64,000 nucleotides of DNA from IMG/VR virus record IMGVR_UViG_3300006033_000017; one strand, written 5' to 3'. Position 1 is the stretch's first letter, and each line of letters opens with the position of its first letter. The notes under the pieces are model-generated. The model made no database searches, was not told the DNA's origin, and worked only from the letters and a program-made list of their open reading frames with translations. The translations under genes and the position numbers were made by a program. The DNA comes from a virus (lineage: Duplodnaviria; Heunggongvirae; Uroviricota; Caudoviricetes). Shown piece after piece: positions 3,554 through 57,698 of the stretch.

Positions 3554-3969
3554 TCATCTGAAATCTTCTGGTACTTTTCCATCAAAGCAGGATACTTCTC
3601 AATGACGGGTTTATCCAAAAACTCAATTACTTGTTCGGGCGTTAGTAGATTAACTGCCCAGTCCAGAACATCCTGAGTTGCTTCGCCATGACACAAAATC
3701 TGCAAAGCATAATGCAGTTGCCTACAAGCAACCTGTTCCTGAAGAACTTCTAGCTTAACAGGGAGCTTACTAATTACAGCAGCATCCACCTGAAGTGCAT
3801 GGTAATTAGAATGCGAAAGATCGGCTCCGGTATCAAGTCCACAACGAGCAATTTCTGTTCGTTCAGCATCCGACAAACCGCACCAATCCTTATAAGTAAA
3901 ATTCCAAGGCTCAACAATTGGACACATCATAGTCTTCCTAACCTTGAAGTTGTCGTTCCCAATCTTCAT
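3538..3969 (-). CDS. hypothetical protein (143 aa)
   Basis: ORF. Confidence 0.4.
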   Translation of the reverse strand: MKIGNDNFKVRKTMMCPIVEPWNFTYKDWCGLSDAERTEIARCGLDTGADLSHSNYHALQVDAAVISKLPVKLEVLQEQVACRQLHYALQILCHGEATQDVLDWAVNLLTPEQVIEFLDKPVIEKYPALMEKYQKISDDWKQR

Positions 3970-4153: not shown

Positions 4154-4683
4154 AACTCATACGGTTGATTCGACGTTTCAGGGATGAGCTTAACAAGCTC
4201 GGTCATAAAGGATTGCTCTTGCCGCAGAGTCTCTTGCAACGCTTTACCAAAAGCGTCATAGTAAAACATCACATCCAGCTCAGAATAAGCTCGCGTTGTA
4301 ACATCGGCGTATGCCAACTCCATTTTCCGCTTGGCTTCCTCAGTCTTAACATAAAAATCGCAATACCGCCAAACAGTACGCATCAATTCACTTACAAGAT
4401 CCTCTAGGCGCTCCCAGTTGCTGCACTTCTTGTCAACCACTGCCGACAATAGCTTGCTGGTGTTGTCGGCCCATTGGTTTTGAAGTTGGCGAAGGGTCGC
4501 CAGTTTACTAGCTAGATTATTCCATCGAAGCTTATTCTCGTCAGTGCTCTTACTGACAAAAAGAGCACCAGCCTCTGACAGATCGGTCTTAGCATCGTCA
4601 ATTCGCAGTCGGATCCCCGCCAAATACTTCATGTTACCAATGATACCGCAAATACAACCATATTGCATTCCAGTCTCCCTCAT
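4129..4683 (-). CDS. hypothetical protein (184 aa)
   Basis: ORF preceded on the minus strand by a TTGACA-N18-TACAAT promoter (plus coordinates 4689..4718). Confidence 0.5.
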   Translation of the reverse strand: MRETGMQYGCICGIIGNMKYLAGIRLRIDDAKTDLSEAGALFVSKSTDENKLRWNNLASKLATLRQLQNQWADNTSKLLSAVVDKKCSNWERLEDLVSELMRTVWRYCDFYVKTEEAKRKMELAYADVTTRAYSELDVMFYYDAFGKALQETLRQEQSFMTELVKLIPETSNQPYELCYKPETK

Positions 4684-4688
4684 CTCTT

Positions 4689-4718
4689 ATTGTATCATAG
4701 GTGGCAGGCGGATGTCAA
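4689..4718 (-). promoter_or_regulatory. sigma70-like promoter (TTGACA-N18-TACAAT) inside a GTCAAGC motif
   Basis: minus-strand reading gcTTGACAtccgcctgccacctatgaTACAAT, ~25 nt upstream of the ATG of the 4129..4683 gene. Confidence 0.5.
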
Positions 4719-4733
4719 GCTATACAATTGGCG

Positions 4734-4997
4734 CTATTGATCCCTATCGGGTAAAGGTTGGAATGTAAATGATGTTTGCACGGTTACTTTCACAATCTGA
4801 AAATTACCTAGAGTTTCCTCATATTCTAGTTTCAAATCACGAAGCTGCTGAGGATCGTATACCTTGTATGCCTCATCAACATCTTCTACTAGTTCACCAC
4901 TACTAACATTTTCTCGACTCGCATATCCAACACAAACACAAGAATCGCTCAAAACGTAAAAACATTCACGCGGCATCTTCTGTCTCCTTAATCTCAT
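4734..4997 (-). CDS. hypothetical protein (87 aa)
   Basis: ORF. Confidence 0.35.
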   Translation of the reverse strand: MRLRRQKMPRECFYVLSDSCVCVGYASRENVSSGELVEDVDEAYKVYDPQQLRDLKLEYEETLGNFQIVKVTVQTSFTFQPLPDRDQ

Positions 4998-5346
4998 ACT
5001 CAGCTAGACTATCAATGAACTTACAAGCATCTTCTATTATTGGGCCATACTTAACTACCCCAGAAACTTTCGACATAGCAATAGACTCTAGGAAACCTAC
5101 ATGAGTTAAGTATTCATCTTTATTCATGGCGGGGGTCTTAAGGATTACTGTGAGTACGGCACCATTCTCATTCAGATCATGGGTAATGGCCTCAACAATA
5201 TGGCTTCTATCGCGAATGATGATGGTATTACCAACTTCAGGCATTACATGATCATTGTCGAGATCCACAAACCAGCTAAGTAAAAGGGGAATAGAGTAGC
5301 CATTAATACGTACCCGTCCCGTGATACGCACAATTCTATTGCTCAT
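4966..5346 (-). CDS. hypothetical protein (126 aa)
   Basis: ORF. Confidence 0.4.
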   Translation of the reverse strand: MSNRIVRITGRVRINGYSIPLLLSWFVDLDNDHVMPEVGNTIIIRDRSHIVEAITHDLNENGAVLTVILKTPAMNKDEYLTHVGFLESIAMSKVSGVVKYGPIIEDACKFIDSLAEYEIKETEDAA

Positions 5347-5690
5347 TATAGTGCCCTCAATTTGCTCGTTAGTGTCATAATAATGGTTATCATAACTTCT
5401 TCTAGCGAGAAGTTTGCATCAGGGTAGTCACTTTCGGCCCACTGCCAACCCGGCCCAAATGTTTCATTTCCCAGATTAAACTCCCAATAATATTCCCATA
5501 GAGGTGGACCATCCTTATGTAGAATACCAAGATAGGTGGAATTATAACTTGCAGTTTTCACTACGAGTACTAAGTCGTGCTTTTGGATTAGTGGGCTACA
5601 TACAGACCCCACAATAAGACTAGTAAGTTGATTGGCTAGGAATTCTCCTGGCCCAATGGCTGCCATACTCTGAATTTGTCCTACTGTCAT
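5346..5690 (-). CDS. hypothetical protein (114 aa)
   Basis: ORF; stop/start overlap with neighbours. Confidence 0.4.
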   Translation of the reverse strand: MTVGQIQSMAAIGPGEFLANQLTSLIVGSVCSPLIQKHDLVLVVKTASYNSTYLGILHKDGPPLWEYYWEFNLGNETFGPGWQWAESDYPDANFSLEEVMITIIMTLTSKLRAL

Positions 5691-6094
5691 TACAGTCCCC
5701 TAAACTCACTATTCTTGTAAACCGATTTACCATCCACAAAAATCTCTAGTTGTTTAACATCCATGAAATAATCATCATTCGTTATCGTACATACTTGACC
5801 AATGCTATACTTATCGAACTTAGCCTTAGTCACATAAATGCGTCTTTTACCTATAGACGAATACATGGCTCTCGCGACTAAAACATAGTCCTTATCATCC
5901 TTGTATTTCCAGACCTCAGGTTGTTTGGTTTTTGGATTGCGCCTACCCACAGTAAAGGCTTCGGGCGGCTCTACAACCTTAGAAATAACCCTCCAAGCAG
6001 TCGGATACGCCGCGCATCCACCTACTAGGTAGACGGGAATGAATAACAAGCCCGCAGCGGCGAGTAACAGGAGTAGTCGAGATAAGAACTTCAT
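5690..6094 (-). CDS. membrane-anchored hypothetical protein (N-terminal TM helix)
   Basis: N-terminus LLLLLAAAGLLFIPVYLVGG is hydrophobic. Confidence 0.45.
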   Translation of the reverse strand: MKFLSRLLLLLAAAGLLFIPVYLVGGCAAYPTAWRVISKVVEPPEAFTVGRRNPKTKQPEVWKYKDDKDYVLVARAMYSSIGKRRIYVTKAKFDKYSIGQVCTITNDDYFMDVKQLEIFVDGKSVYKNSEFRGL

Positions 6095-32328: not shown

Positions 32329-32535
32329 ATGTTATTCTGTTTCGATGTTGAGAGCAATGGATTACTAGGTGACGCTTTTGCCTTCGGGGCTGTCATCTTA
32401 GATCCTGGTTTTCAGGTCATTGATACCAAAATCGCTGTAGCACCGTTCCCTGACAAGCCTGACCCTTGGGTTCTAGAGAACATTATTGAGACGAATGTTC
32501 TACCGAAGCCTAGTGTTGAGACACTTCCACAATAA
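32329..32535 (+). CDS. hypothetical protein (68 aa)
   Basis: ORF. Confidence 0.35.
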   Translation: MLFCFDVESNGLLGDAFAFGAVILDPGFQVIDTKIAVAPFPDKPDPWVLENIIETNVLPKPSVETLPQ

Positions 32536-33722: not shown

Positions 33723-34196
33723 ATGGGGCCACGTAAGGGAGACGATAAGTTTGTGCTCGTTCCTGTGAGACGGAATGAAGTAAATAAGACTAATACGCCT
33801 CGTGTCTCTACAGACAAGGCCCTTAGAGTTAAATTAACCGAACTTGTCACGAAGATTGTTAGTAACTATACACCATATGCACAAACTTCCGCCAATCATC
33901 CCGATACTTTTAAGGGGACAATATTGGCGGAAGTTCAGTTGGTTGCTATGGTAATGGCCTGGGATGACTTCGTAACTTTATTGGCGCGCGGAATTCGGCA
34001 ACTGTCTGAGCTTGATGCCCTCAAAGATATGAAGCGAGAAATAGCATCTGTCCTCCAGCTCATTAAGAACCGAAGAGACATGATCTTTGAAGATCTCGCT
34101 CCTCAAGATCAGGCTACTTGCAAGAAGGCATTTGCTGAAGTCCACATGAAGCCAATTAATGGAGCAGAAATCCTAGCCCAGCTTTTTGGTACTTAA
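33723..34196 (+). CDS. hypothetical protein (157 aa)
   Basis: ORF. Confidence 0.4.
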   Translation: MGPRKGDDKFVLVPVRRNEVNKTNTPRVSTDKALRVKLTELVTKIVSNYTPYAQTSANHPDTFKGTILAEVQLVAMVMAWDDFVTLLARGIRQLSELDALKDMKREIASVLQLIKNRRDMIFEDLAPQDQATCKKAFAEVHMKPINGAEILAQLFGT

Positions 34197-34543
34197 GCTG
34201 CCTTAAGCGCCTTCGTTTCTACTGGCGCGGGTGCATCAATAAGAGCAGTCAGTCTCTTGATTTCATCCTGCACCAGCTTATGATGAAAGCACTTACGCGC
34301 CAACTCAAGCTGTTCATAAGCAATGGCAAGTGAGCCGAAACTTGTTGCCGCCACAGCTTCTCCCCATACAGGATTTTCATCTGACGGGGAATGAAGATAC
34401 TGTTGAGGGATAAAACCGCCCTTAGCTCCTCGGATACCCTTCACAATCTGCCACCAATCTCCATGTGGCATAATAGCATAAAGCTCAGTACCCTCACCAT
34501 ACACTACTTCAATGTGAGACAAAGTGGGTTGCTTCTCAACCAT
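34193..34543 (-). CDS. hypothetical protein (116 aa)
   Basis: ORF immediately downstream of the TnpB 3' flank. Confidence 0.4.
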   Translation of the reverse strand: MVEKQPTLSHIEVVYGEGTELYAIMPHGDWWQIVKGIRGAKGGFIPQQYLHSPSDENPVWGEAVAATSFGSLAIAYEQLELARKCFHHKLVQDEIKRLTALIDAPAPVETKALKAA

Positions 34544-34645
34544 GTTTTATACCTTCCTTTAGTCGATTCTCACTCGGGTCACAATCGTCTGCTTCGTAGC
34601 AGTACCGTTACGATCAATATACCGTTCCTTAAAATCTGCGGAAAT

Positions 34646-35845
34646 CTAAGCATTTTGCAATGTCTCGAATATCCGCGAATCTATAGGTTTGAAACCGGCA
34701 CCGTAAGGTCCGGTAAGGAATCGATTCAAAATATTCTTACTCGCGTTTGTATCCGCATTGTCTCCATGACCACAACTGAGACACAAGAACACCTCTCCGT
34801 TTCGATTCCTCTTATCGACATGACCACATAGCGGACAGGTGATACTGGTATTATAACACGAAACGGTTCTGAAGGAAACACGGTTTTCTTCACACCCCAT
34901 TTGTACCCGGTCTAACCAATATCGCCATACCCAACTGCCGATAACTCGACGCATACTTTTAGAGAGGCGTCGTCTCTCCTTTGCCTTATGGTTCAGATTA
35001 GATAACTTCTCCACAACCACAAGATCAATACTTTTATTAGTTACGATCTGCCTCGTAACTTCGTCTATTCGTTGTTTCAAGGCCCTACGAGCTTTCTTTT
35101 GGCCTTTCGATCCCTGATTACAACGATTGACTCTGTTCACACAATCTTTAATATCTCTACCTAATTGCTCTCCAGTAGAGAATGAAGCCAAAGCATTAAT
35201 CCCAGAGTCTATACCGATAGCATTGAGCCCCGTTTTCTTTGGACCAGTTTCAATCTCGAAACAGAACTGAACACTATCTCTGGTGATAATGTAGCTATTC
35301 AGTCTTGTTCCCAATTGATTCCATTTGTTGAAATGCTTGTGTTTTTTAATCGGAAGATCCATCACAATCTTATTGCCAATTGAAGCTAGATGCAACCAAG
35401 AATCAAATTCTGATGCTGCCTTTGAAGCCACTAACTTAGCAATGTTACAATTGGCGCAAATTCTATCTCCTTTGTGTGTCGGCTTAACGGGCTTGATTGT
35501 TTCTGCTTTTTGTCTTAATTGATTGGCCTTAACTTCGTATTTAGCTCTTTCTGCTTTGGCTAATAATCGTTTTTTCTCATTTTTGGCTTTCTCTTGAGAA
35601 GAATTAATCAGATCAATAGCTTCTCTTGCACAGACCTTTCTCATTCTATGAGAAAACCAAGAATCAGGGAGGTTGATTATATCTTTGAGCAAGTCTGCTT
35701 TTGTCGGGCATTTATCTAGTGCCCAGAAAGAATCAATGAAGATATTGCAGAGTCTTCCGTATTCGATCAACACAATGCTAAGCTCCTCTCTCTTTTTTAA
35801 GGTCGAGAATTTAAGGGTACATTGTGTTGACCGAATGATTTTCAC
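34646..35845 (-). CDS. tnpB: TnpB (IS605 OrfB-family RuvC-like, putative RNA-guided nuclease)
   Basis: RuvC-I GIDSGINALA, RuvC-II VVVEKLSN, zinc finger CPLCGH...CLSCGH, RuvC-III DNADTNASKNI; N-terminus MKIIRSTQCTLKF is typical. Confidence 0.8.
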   Translation of the reverse strand: MKIIRSTQCTLKFSTLKKREELSIVLIEYGRLCNIFIDSFWALDKCPTKADLLKDIINLPDSWFSHRMRKVCAREAIDLINSSQEKAKNEKKRLLAKAERAKYEVKANQLRQKAETIKPVKPTHKGDRICANCNIAKLVASKAASEFDSWLHLASIGNKIVMDLPIKKHKHFNKWNQLGTRLNSYIITRDSVQFCFEIETGPKKTGLNAIGIDSGINALASFSTGEQLGRDIKDCVNRVNRCNQGSKGQKKARRALKQRIDEVTRQIVTNKSIDLVVVEKLSNLNHKAKERRRLSKSMRRVIGSWVWRYWLDRVQMGCEENRVSFRTVSCYNTSITCPLCGHVDKRNRNGEVFLCLSCGHGDNADTNASKNILNRFLTGPYGAGFKPIDSRIFETLQNA

Positions 35846-36033
35846 TTACTGCCTTCTTTCAAAAATCGATCAATATCAGATAGCTTGTATAACCTTCGAT
35901 TACCTGGTGTGCGAATAGCCGTCAGACTTCCTTTTTCATCCCACTCTCTTAGGGTTTCTCGACGCACACCAATCATTTTGGCAGCCTCACCTATCTTAAT
36001 CATTTTATCATTTTCCATATCACTACCTTCCAC
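35842..36033 (-). CDS. MerR-like HTH DNA-binding protein (resembles the N-terminal domain of IS607 TnpA serine recombinase)
   Basis: IKIGEAAKMIGVRRETLREWDEKG helix-turn-helix; ATGA overlap with the tnpB start. Confidence 0.5.
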   Translation of the reverse strand: MEGSDMENDKMIKIGEAAKMIGVRRETLREWDEKGSLTAIRTPGNRRLYKLSDIDRFLKEGSK

Positions 36034-36095
36034 AACTAAACACTATATTCCTCTATATTATGAGGAATTAGAAATAAGCCTACCCTGCCAGAATT

Positions 36096-37385
36096 TTATG
36101 AACACCCACCCTCGCGCAAGCGAGTGATAATCGTTTGCTTAGTTGTCATACTAGTGCGATGATCAGTATACTCCTTGTGGTCCTTTACCATCGCGGTCAC
36201 GTTATAGAACTTGTGCATCTCCATATCAGGCTGAGTTGCAGAATACCAGATAGCGACATTACTATTACGATCCATCAACTTGTAGCAAACAGCCCCATAT
36301 CGACTGTAAGTATTGAATTGTCCAACCAGCTTCAGTTCGAAGTTGCCGCGTGCGCCGACTTCACCGAAGTAGTCACTATTTTCCGAAGCCTCTTGGGCGG
36401 AACGGACACGATCCATATACGGAAGGATGTACGCAGCAAGGCCAAGATGCTTATAGAGTACCCATTCCTGCTGGACGATAACCCACATATTGTAATCAAA
36501 GGTACTCATCTGAGCAGGATCCTTGTCCTTCAGATAGTCCCTGATCCAACTAAGGCCGTCCTTAGCCCGCTCCGTATCTTCAGCGGTAGGCGAGAGCTTG
36601 CCCCGACCCTTATCAGTCAACATGGTAGTTGCCATGTCAGAAGTAGAACAAGTGTAATTCAATTCTGCTTGCCGACGGGTAATGTAGCCTACCTTGCGGA
36701 TCGCCATGGAACAATACTCAAGATACCGCTCCATAGAGAAGCCATAAGTACCATGGTCACGTCCGCCAAACTCTTCATCACTCTCGGAAATTGTGCTGCA
36801 AGAGTCAAGGGTATCGAAGTAAGTCTGATACCAATCCGCGATACTCTGCACATCCTGAGCAGGGAAGAAGAAACTCAAGCAATTGCGACCAATCTGCTTG
36901 TACTCACCAGTTTCCTTGTTGTACAGAAGGAACGTCTCTTTGCGAGAACGAGACGTATGGCAGTAATCACACTGATGTTGAGTACGATACAGAACAGGAA
37001 CTTCAGCTTCCCAATAAGGAGCAACACGTACCATCGTTGGGTCAGTAGTATGGTCTAGGGTTGCCACTAGAATCCAATGAGAACAAAACTCAGGAACAGG
37101 CCCTTCACCAACAATCTCGATGTTATAGTACAGGATGTACTTATCGAGACCGTCAGAATCAGTAACCTTAGTAGTGTCCTGACTAATGATCTCACAGGTA
37201 ATTTCGGGAAGATCGAGCGTATTGCGTGCGCGCCAAGTACGAATCTTCTTGTTGGCCCTCTCGATGACTTTCGCGAGGTGATTGTAATTCGCCGCAGGTA
37301 CTCGGTACTGCTTGGGGTCCGCCGCCTTGACAGGTAGCGACTCAATCCGGGCCTCTCCGTAGCCGTTAGTATCAAAGGTGCTCAT
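36096..37385 (-). CDS. hypothetical protein (429 aa)
   Basis: long ORF; promoter TTGACA-N17-TggTACCAT at 37407..37435. Confidence 0.5.
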   Translation of the reverse strand: MSTFDTNGYGEARIESLPVKAADPKQYRVPAANYNHLAKVIERANKKIRTWRARNTLDLPEITCEIISQDTTKVTDSDGLDKYILYYNIEIVGEGPVPEFCSHWILVATLDHTTDPTMVRVAPYWEAEVPVLYRTQHQCDYCHTSRSRKETFLLYNKETGEYKQIGRNCLSFFFPAQDVQSIADWYQTYFDTLDSCSTISESDEEFGGRDHGTYGFSMERYLEYCSMAIRKVGYITRRQAELNYTCSTSDMATTMLTDKGRGKLSPTAEDTERAKDGLSWIRDYLKDKDPAQMSTFDYNMWVIVQQEWVLYKHLGLAAYILPYMDRVRSAQEASENSDYFGEVGARGNFELKLVGQFNTYSRYGAVCYKLMDRNSNVAIWYSATQPDMEMHKFYNVTAMVKDHKEYTDHRTSMTTKQTIITRLREGGCS

Positions 37386-57399: not shown

Positions 57400-57698
57400 T
57401 GCCCCTGTCTGGAGTTGAACCAGCGTCACCCGGTTATGCTTACCACTATAGTTTTCACTACCAAACAAGTTGTTTGTGGTCTGGACTCTCTCTTCACCAT
57501 AGATTATTATCTTTAGGTGTTCCGTGTTGAGTCTCTACACCTTGCAACTTTCGTTGCCTTGGCTCGGGATTGCCATTTCACAGGGTTCCCCGAATTTACG
57601 GAATAATCACAGCAATAGTTTCCTATTGCCGCGCCCTCTTTTGTGCTTCTAAAGCACGTTAGCGAAGCCGGACGCTCTAACCATTGAGCTACAGGGGC
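57400..57698 (-). tRNA. tRNA with anticodon CAU (Met or Ile-lysidine type) interrupted by a 227-nt group I intron in the anticodon loop
   Basis: 5' exon GCCCCUG-UA-GCUC-AAUGGUUA-GAGC-G-UCCGG-CU (57666..57698) and 3' exon CAUAA-CCGGG-UGAC-GCUGG-UUCAACU-CCAGA-CAGGGGC-A (57400..57438); all stems pair; intron ends in G. Confidence 0.7.
57439..57665 (-). ncRNA. group I self-splicing intron (IC3-like, Azoarcus / cyanobacterial tRNA-intron type)
   Basis: AAAUUCGGGGAACCCUG ... GGCAAUCCCGAGCCAAGG ... GGUGUAGAGACUCAACACGGAACACCUAAAG ... CUAUGG ... GAGAGUCC closely match the conserved P3-P8 core of the Azoarcus tRNA-Ile and Anabaena tRNA-Leu introns. Confidence 0.65.

Follow-up and report, generated by a model that had tools for sequence, protein, structure and literature searches.

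The 64,000-nucleotide (nt) stretch of DNA analysed here, referred to as the window, comes from the Caudoviricetes virus record IMGVR_UViG_3300006033_000017 of IMG/VR, and its positions 34,544–36,095 contain a stripped-down derivative of the IS607 family, which lies in a phage genome on the minus strand from about 36065 to 34621. The cassette is made up of three parts: a small gene for a helix-turn-helix (HTH) protein, the nuclease gene tnpB, and an omega RNA (ωRNA) embedded in the 3′ end of tnpB. We consider it fairly probable that this is a one-ended IS607 derivative lacking the transposase TnpA, in which the TnpB–ωRNA pair stays active, probably for homing between co-infecting phages, and the HTH protein serves as a regulator. 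Phage TnpBs, IS607-type TnpBs with their ωRNAs, tnpB copies lacking TnpA and sporadic HTH partners are already on record (PMC10691335). What is new, to judge from the sequences, is a two-gene HTH–TnpB module that has neither recombinase nor left end and yet is conserved and co-transferred among phages. The copy in the window is called W below; L001, L004, L005, L048, L050, L051 and similar labels denote related contigs.

The tnpB gene (34646..35845, minus strand) encodes an RNA-guided RuvC nuclease of 399 amino acids (aa), from a GTG start to a TAG stop. We preferred this start to the shorter gene call of the Joint Genome Institute (JGI) because the N-terminus MKIIRS… is conserved beginning at residue 1. 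Profile searches matched the product to Pfam Cas12f1-like_TNB (PF07282; E 3e-12, above the gathering score), to NCBIfam guided_TnpB (E 1e-22) and to PHROG transposase families, and about 900 homologues were present in the metagenome protein set. The RuvC triad D213 (IGIDSG), E279 (VVVEKL) and D365 (NADTNA) was invariant in an alignment of 29 sequences, as were the zinc-finger cysteines C337/C340/C355/C358 (CxxC…CxxC) of the TNB domain, which lies between RuvC-II and RuvC-III. An AlphaFold2 model reached a mean predicted local distance difference test score (pLDDT) of 84.6, and its top Foldseek matches were AsCas12f (5.7e-15), ISFba1 TnpB (4e-12) and ISDra2 TnpB (1.7e-11), with Fanzor2 among the further hits; ISFba1 is an IS607 TnpB and was matched as the structure bound to its right-end RNA (reRNA). 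The window TnpB is therefore predicted to adopt the TnpB/Cas12f fold (WED-REC-RuvC-TNB), and by its residues and modelled fold it appears catalytically intact. An earlier sequence-only reading of this locus had described an intact tnpB with three RuvC motifs and a zinc finger, which the invariant residues and predicted fold bear out, and the alignment revealed no inactivating mutation at D213, E279 or D365. A dead nuclease of the TldR type is ruled out by the same intact, invariant triad.

Several further features of tnpB were observed. TnpBs of the phage clade carry a Lys/Glu-rich helical insertion of about 25 aa (W residues ~84–117, about 35495–35596), which is modelled as a single long helix and is missing from nearly all other family members in the 29-sequence alignment. 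Residues 331–379, covering the zinc finger and RuvC-III, found their best PDB sequence match in the phage-encoded CasPhi-2 (Cas12j; E 7.9e-9) through the pattern TSITCP.CGH…NR.GE.F.CLSCG..NAD, while the best whole-fold matches were still Cas12f and TnpB. A 17-nt inverted repeat pairing 35761–35777 with 35820–35836 (94% complementary) occupies the first 85 nt of the gene; it was set aside as a feature, having no family-wide consensus structure or covariation and being just partly retained in the phage clade.

The ωRNA scaffold has a minimum extent of 34621..34811 on the minus strand, overlapping the final ~55 codons of tnpB and continuing for 25 nt beyond the gene. It comprises a long-range helix pairing 34804–34811 with 34715–34722, nested helices within 34733–34790, a hairpin at 34694–34714 whose UACGGU loop is invariant, and a terminal hairpin at ~34630–34683. 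From 21 diverse copies RNAalifold predicted 36 base pairs, 19 of them with compensatory double changes. In this structure 95.9% of the cells were paired, versus 84% in column shuffles, none of 500 shuffles reaching the observed value, and sliding the partners by 1–3 columns lowered pairing to 39–49%. With 67 non-redundant copies, 29 pairs were predicted (17 compensatory), and the window sequence forms every one of the 29. In 62 of the 67 copies the variable stretch that follows the last consensus hairpin and precedes GAACGGT forms a long terminal hairpin, which folds better than shuffles. In comparisons with L001, L004 and L005, identity at third codon positions rose to 71–75% in the last 69 codons of tnpB, versus 44–63% elsewhere, as would follow if those bases had to specify RNA structure as well.

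No Rfam family matched the window ωRNA at the gathering threshold, only noise appeared at E values up to 10 in 34100–36200, and the RAGATH-18 covariance model of the IS607 reRNA gave no match to it. The covariation thus describes what we take to be a new ωRNA family of about 190 nt that ends in GAACGGU and has no Rfam entry. These data uphold the proposal that the 3′ end of tnpB encodes an ωRNA whose guide points toward the neighbouring gene, and structured RNA was indeed found at the 3′ flank through covariation and the complete set of window pairs, though in no Rfam family. The extent first proposed (34544–34645) needs correction, as it lay about 100 nt too far downstream: the scaffold occupies ~34621–34811 and reaches just 25 nt past the stop codon.

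The right end of the element coincides with the end of the scaffold. DNA conservation past the tnpB stop continued for 25 nt (ATTTCCGCAGATTTTAAGGAACGGT) and was then lost abruptly in comparisons with L001, L004 and L005, whose proteins are 74–77% identical. About 100 of 111 full-length loci from viral sequences, metagenomes and metagenome-assembled genomes carried (G)AACGGT 4–65 nt after the stop, followed by unrelated sequence. Since such an abrupt end of conservation is the signature of both a transposon right end and a scaffold/guide boundary, we placed the right end of the window element at 34621. There the element closes as …GGAACGG(T), and its terminal motif GGAACGGT (34621..34628, minus strand) is a GG-terminated end of the IS607 type at which homology with all relatives stops. 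Two other copies of GGAACGGT in the window, at 32442 and 61703, were rejected because their context is not right-end-like. A second TAACGGT was seen at 34604–34610 (minus strand), 10 nt past the right-end motif; it may be a chance occurrence, or a sub-terminal repeat resembling a TnpA site, or a target preference, and ACGGT is also invariant in the ωRNA loop.

Because homology ends at the right-end motif, the putative guide would be restricted to about 34601–34620 (minus strand) and would not take up the whole 100-nt flank. It reads (T)ATATTGATCGTAACGGTACT and is assigned from the scaffold/flank boundary and by analogy with the CboIStron IS607 (PMC10690162); the flank from 34620 onward reads (T)ATATTGATCGTAACGG…. 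The spacer between the tnpB stop and the ATG of the next gene at 34543 measures 102 nt, of which 25 nt belong to the scaffold and 77 nt are ordinary flank. A second match of the guide was absent from the 64-kb window within 3 mismatches, and the 20-mer had no exact match in IMG/VR and none in GenBank phages. A 10-nt match inside the HTH gene was dismissed as fortuitous, since around 1.5 matches of this kind would be expected, and the TCTG upstream of it does not resemble a transposon-associated motif (TAM). The window contained neither arrays of ωRNAs or guides nor extra copies of the scaffold.

The remaining parts of a complete IS607 element were missing. A hidden Markov model (HMM) of the catalytic domain built from related TnpAs detected no serine recombinase anywhere in the 64-kb window, which also has no second tnpB. 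The sub-terminal 16-mer AGATTTCCGCAGATTT is present in the window as the right-end copy only (34632..34647, minus strand); in L001 it recurs inverted at the left end, and near the window cassette no inverted copy was found with up to 3 mismatches. No left end was recognisable in the window except for a possible AGGG|TAG relic: AGGGTAG at 36080..36086 (minus strand), which follows the stop codon of the 429-aa upstream gene by 10 nt, is similar to the left junctions AAAAGGG|TAG of L001 and TGATGGG|TTA of L004 and may, speculatively, be what is left of a left junction or a TAM. A conserved left end directly upstream of tnpB was also considered and discarded, as no sequence was common to the stretches that precede the start codon in 96 non-redundant loci. 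Upstream of the gene, W, L001 and L005 could not be aligned with one another, and DNA homology of W with L001, L004 and L005 starts exactly at the tnpB start codon. Having no recombinase and no recognisable left-end repeat, the window element cannot transpose by itself. The absence of a serine-recombinase catalytic domain and the probable immobility of the element, both proposed at the outset, were thereby supported, in that without a recombinase there is no TnpA-type transposition in cis and the left-end repeat is missing as well. The comparison of related phages that had been suggested for defining the element ends set the right end at 34621 and found no left-end repeat.

Relatives of the cassette identify the family from which it came. 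Across 96 non-redundant upstream contexts, many relatives carry a complete TnpA, about 210 aa long with an HTH and a serine recombinase, which either overlaps tnpB by 4–20 nt, as in canonical IS607, or lies 0.2–1.8 kb upstream, with small or helicase-like open reading frames (ORFs) in between. One Thermoplasmata (archaeal) contig holds two copies that are 99.7% identical over exactly 1747 bp; the unit consists of tnpA, tnpB and 23 nt, ends in GAACGGT and, given two such copies of exact length, looks like an active insertion sequence. L001 is a full element with AGATTTCCGCAGATTT at its right end and inverted at its left end, and the same phage genome holds L004, a 1.4-kb derivative composed of left end, tnpB and right end without TnpA; the left-end 16-mer is common to the two. 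IS607 elements have GG termini and sub-terminal TnpA sites that are bound by the N-terminal DNA-binding domain (PMC6188088), and an IS607 TnpB uses the TAM TGGG with a scaffold ending in UCGG (PMC10690162). The full-TnpA relatives, the WGGG-like left junctions and the GG-terminated right end together place the family within the IS607 type, for which the literature would predict a G-rich TAM proximal to GG.

Some full relatives carry additional genes. A conserved ORF of ~67–80 aa with the motif VVRVxKxEFELDNGxxYP immediately precedes tnpA in three full elements that are divergent from one another (L001 3364–3567, L015 1656–1871 and L019 1304–1546); it had no Pfam, NCBIfam or PHROG match and is absent from the window. 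Between tnpA and tnpB, L001 encodes a protein of 505 aa (4182–5699), whose ResIII (helicase) signal is faint, together with a 95-aa ORF. This cargo falls inside the left-end and right-end boundaries of the 4-kb element, making L001 a cargo-carrying IS607 as in the Ser-3 branch (PMC10691335).

In W the position of tnpA is taken by a gene of the MerR/excisionase HTH type (35842..36033, minus strand). The longest ORF runs for 63 aa from GTG 36033, as the sequence-only reading had it; a product of 58 aa from ATG 36018 is more likely, because a GGAAGG Shine-Dalgarno sequence stands 7 nt upstream of that ATG and the JGI gene call starts there. The stop codon TGA of the HTH gene overlaps the GTG start of tnpB by 4 nt (35842–35845), so that the coupling reported as ATGA is in fact GTGA. 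The protein consists of a MerR/HTH_17 domain only (Pfam, E 4e-12). With the N-terminal HTH of the TnpA (216 aa) of L001 it shares 47% identity, and in the alignment with that protein it stops where the YARVSS catalytic motif would start. These two properties make derivation from TnpA plausible, as far as sequence comparison goes. On the other side, the excisionase model TIGR01764 scored 37.2 bits (above its cutoff), BldC 35.5 bits, and HspR also exceeded the IS607 transposase model NF033518, which reached 31.5 bits versus a cutoff of 110. The best matches among 1.84 billion representative proteins were HTH-only or multi-HTH repeat proteins, with a Resolvase domain in 0 of the 10 scanned, and are uninformative on a TnpA origin. 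Evidence against a specific TnpA origin would thus appear as strong as evidence for it, and the description of the gene as only the HTH of an IS607 TnpA stands for its domain content and its likeness to the TnpA HTH, less so for its ancestry, as excisionase, BldC and HspR score as well or better.

HTH-only partners are confined to the phage clade (70–79% TnpB identity), in which the window protein is 65–67% identical to the HTH-only proteins linked to tnpB. They occur in four forms: 58/63 aa with the GTGA overlap in W; 58 aa in L051, where TAA is directly followed by the ATG of tnpB; 85 aa in L050, followed by a 181-aa ORF and then tnpB; and 130/146 aa in L005–L012, where the HTH bears a C-terminal extension unrelated to recombinases and the gene overlaps tnpB. 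W and L051 share one continuous DNA block over HTH and tnpB with 79% nucleotide identity between unrelated flanks, and at that identity the transfer into a different flank would be an old event. The ratio of nonsynonymous to synonymous substitution rates (dN/dS) was ~0.12 for HTH (W versus L051, with synonymous sites nearly saturated) and 0.10–0.16 for tnpB, in comparisons spanning ~20–35% protein divergence, which indicates that the two genes are under purifying selection. Because of the shared block and the low dN/dS, we regard HTH and tnpB as a co-inherited module kept by selection and not as a stump beside a fossil. The label "degenerate" given to the element earlier, in the sense of decaying, is accordingly contradicted by the purifying selection, the block shared with L051 and the four HTH-only forms. 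Against L048, which is 98% identical, the window showed no differences over ~1490 nt, a tract that runs from the 3′ end of the gene upstream through HTH and takes in most of tnpB; there were 30 differences in the preceding ~960 nt, and identity was 88% further out. This gradient of 100%, 97% and 88% is consistent with co-conversion around the cassette and is not specific to it.

In the mechanism that we propose, the HTH–tnpB–ωRNA region would be transcribed as one unit, and TnpB would process the 3′ part into ωRNA, whose guide would be the ~16–20 nt of flank beginning at 34620. The complex would recognise genomes in which the flank joins a TAM, probably WGGG-like, directly; the predicted target is TATATTGATCGTAACGGTACT with the TAM 5′ of it. 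As the guide is the adjacent flank, the natural target would be the cassette-free allele, whether in co-infecting related phages or, if TnpA were supplied in trans, at the vacated site. Repair of the break from the element-bearing genome would then copy the cassette and adjacent markers, much like the homing and marker exclusion of free-standing phage homing endonucleases, which copy themselves together with neighbouring markers (reviewed in PMC13565253). For vacated sites, such homing has been demonstrated with TnpBs of IS605 and IS607 (PMC10055086, PMC10690162). The HTH protein would be the DNA-binding regulator of the cassette. By analogy it would most likely repress transcription at a palindrome upstream of its own gene, and it may alternatively or additionally occupy TnpA-type sites at the right end. 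The palindrome, ATTCCTC-N8-GAGGAAT (36047..36068, minus strand), lies 14 nt upstream of the HTH ORF and may serve as an operator or attenuator; L050 and L051 also have its right half (ATAGAGGAAT) upstream of HTH. Models for this putative role are the Arc repressor in IS605, CvkR in the type V-K CRISPR-associated transposon, and transposase derivatives reduced to their DNA-binding domain, which inhibit transposition.

Several observations weigh against this account. In L051 the last ~65 nt of the scaffold, including GAACGGT, have been replaced by unrelated sequence (3650–3715) next to an intact tnpB of 404 aa, which suggests that retention of TnpB may not always depend on this ωRNA end. The L048 gradient could reflect ordinary phage mosaicism, and the end of the contig restricts it to one side. 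Element-free alleles of this phage did not come to light in IMG/VR, among GenBank phages or by protein look-ups; an exact look-up of the downstream 116-aa protein returned cassette-bearing contigs only, and no recent second copy of the window element turned up. No sigma-70-like promoter was apparent ahead of the HTH gene, the sites proposed for binding of the HTH protein are guesses, and the TAM is probably WGGG-like by just two left junctions in relatives.

A stricter version of the proposal would make HTH–TnpB–ωRNA a self-sufficient, recombinase-free RNA-guided homing cassette that spreads only by cleaving cassette-free alleles, with the HTH protein repressing the cassette or marking and protecting its end; that protein would then be retained from the TnpA DNA-binding domain or convergent with it. 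We put this forward tentatively, as a possibility.

We regard it as unlikely that the cassette is instead a non-autonomous element moved in trans by the TnpA of a full IS607 in the same phage, a co-infecting phage or the host, with the HTH protein competing or assisting. The full L001 and the TnpA-less L004 do coexist in one related phage genome, and the window element does not differ from L001 at its right end, 16-mer included. Excision by serine recombinases, however, requires two ends (PMC10690162), the left-end 16-mer common to L001 and L004 is missing from the window copy, and no TnpA occurs in the 64 kb searched out of a 116–157-kb contig.

Likewise improbable is a decaying relic, that is, an IS607 copy that lost its left end and the catalytic part of tnpA and now erodes as an immobile fossil with the HTH gene as a functionless stump. 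The missing recombinase and left-end repeat would fit such a history, as would an HTH that aligns with the TnpA N-terminus and ends exactly at the expected start of the catalytic domain, and the scaffold end is already lost in L051. Against it stand the low dN/dS of both genes over substantial protein divergence, the intact catalytic residues, all 29 of 29 ωRNA pairs, the preserved tight GTGA coupling, and the HTH-only genes of four different lengths retained beside tnpB in distinct phages.

Domestication, which the sequence-only reading had raised, would turn TnpB into a nuclease or regulator with a fixed guide against the host, a plasmid or a rival phage, serving ends other than its own propagation. 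A cassette kept under purifying selection without a transposase would be in keeping with this, and TldR sets a precedent for domesticated phage TnpB relatives (PMC10705468). We found no evidence for it and judge it quite unlikely: the guide, like that of every mobile relative, is the flank next to the element, differs in every context and lacks the second match that was sought in the window, IMG/VR and GenBank phages; the RuvC site is intact, unlike that of TldR; and neither guide arrays nor extra scaffolds were present. That the HTH gene is an unrelated phage transcription factor or excisionase sitting beside tnpB by chance is most improbable, for although excisionase, BldC and HspR are among its best family matches and small HTH_17 proteins are common in phages, the gene overlaps tnpB by 4 nt, was co-inherited with it as one 79%-identical block in a different flank, and has its closest relatives all adjoining tnpB of the same clade.

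Among known systems, the cassette resembles IS607 elements such as CboIStron IS607 and ISFba1 in the fold and catalytic site of TnpB, in an ωRNA that overlaps the 3′ end of tnpB, in a right end terminating …CGG beside the guide, and in relatives whose MerR-HTH-plus-resolvase TnpA overlaps tnpB; the left junctions of relatives are WGGG-like, as is the TAM TGGG of CboIStron. It differs in lacking the TnpA catalytic domain and the left-end repeat, in having an HTH-only gene in place of tnpA, in being phage-borne, and in an ωRNA that belongs neither to RAGATH-18/reRNA nor to any Rfam family. The Ser-3 branch (Altae-Tran et al., PNAS 2023, PMC10691335), where TnpBs of the serine-recombinase branch occur with an extra HTH protein and helicase cargo, would by analogy share the combination of an IS607-type TnpB with a separate HTH protein, and its cargo is paralleled by the ORFs between tnpA and tnpB in relatives (the 505-aa ResIII-like protein of L001, small ORFs in L015 and L019). 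In that branch the HTH accompanies a recombinase, whereas the window has no recombinase and translational coupling links its HTH gene to tnpB. The elements that encode the repressors Arc (IS605; bioRxiv 10.64898/2026.09.24.754181) and CvkR (a MerR-type repressor of the type V-K CRISPR-associated transposon) likewise pair a tiny DNA-binding protein with an RNA-guided TnpB/Cas12-type gene and an upstream palindrome. Arc has a ribbon-helix-helix fold, CvkR is larger and belongs to a CRISPR-associated transposon, and the window protein is a putative repressor of the HTH type. Like the free-standing homing endonucleases Seg and Mob of T4, the window nuclease gene is wedged between phage genes without a recombinase, and the identity gradient around it is consistent with co-conversion. 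Its target recognition would differ from theirs, being guided by RNA and set by the presence or absence of the cassette, not by polymorphisms read by a protein. Its predicted target, the cassette-free allele of a co-infecting phage, matches the "non-restorative transposon homing" class of an OMEGA review (PMC13565253). TldR, too, is a relative of TnpB that phages carry without a transposase and that has an ωRNA-like guide, but its RuvC site is inactivated and its conserved guides face host promoters, whereas the window RuvC is intact and the guide is local flank.

The genes around the cassette are those of a phage: profile searches assigned an endolysin/amidase, a Gp80 head/fiber protein and further PHROG families. 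Close DNA relatives of the window phage were absent from GenBank phages, and close phage relatives were not found in IMG/VR through the flanking proteins. The window has just 8 ORFs of at least 300 aa in 64 kb and is otherwise dense with very small genes. An alternative genetic code was considered for the scarcity of long ORFs and rejected, since the ORFs did not become markedly longer after recoding any one stop codon. A group I catalytic intron lies at 57463–57662 on the minus strand (Rfam RF00028, 60.2 bits, E 8.6e-13), with same-strand ORFs on either side.

TnpB is usually accounted for as a retention device of a transposon that has its own transposase. Here an intact TnpB, its ωRNA and a small HTH protein have been kept as a set in several phages where the transposase is missing and a single transposon end remains. 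If the stricter, homing-only version is correct, the cassette would represent a distinct OMEGA lifestyle, between transposon-borne TnpB and free-standing homing endonucleases. The compact TnpB (about 360–400 aa) with its ~190-nt ωRNA ending in GAACGGU is also a candidate scaffold for genome editing. Should the cassette spread by homing between co-infecting phages, it would amount to a natural guide-RNA "gene drive" in viruses and would suggest a function for the HTH proteins that large surveys have recorded, but left unexplained, beside TnpBs of the serine-recombinase type.

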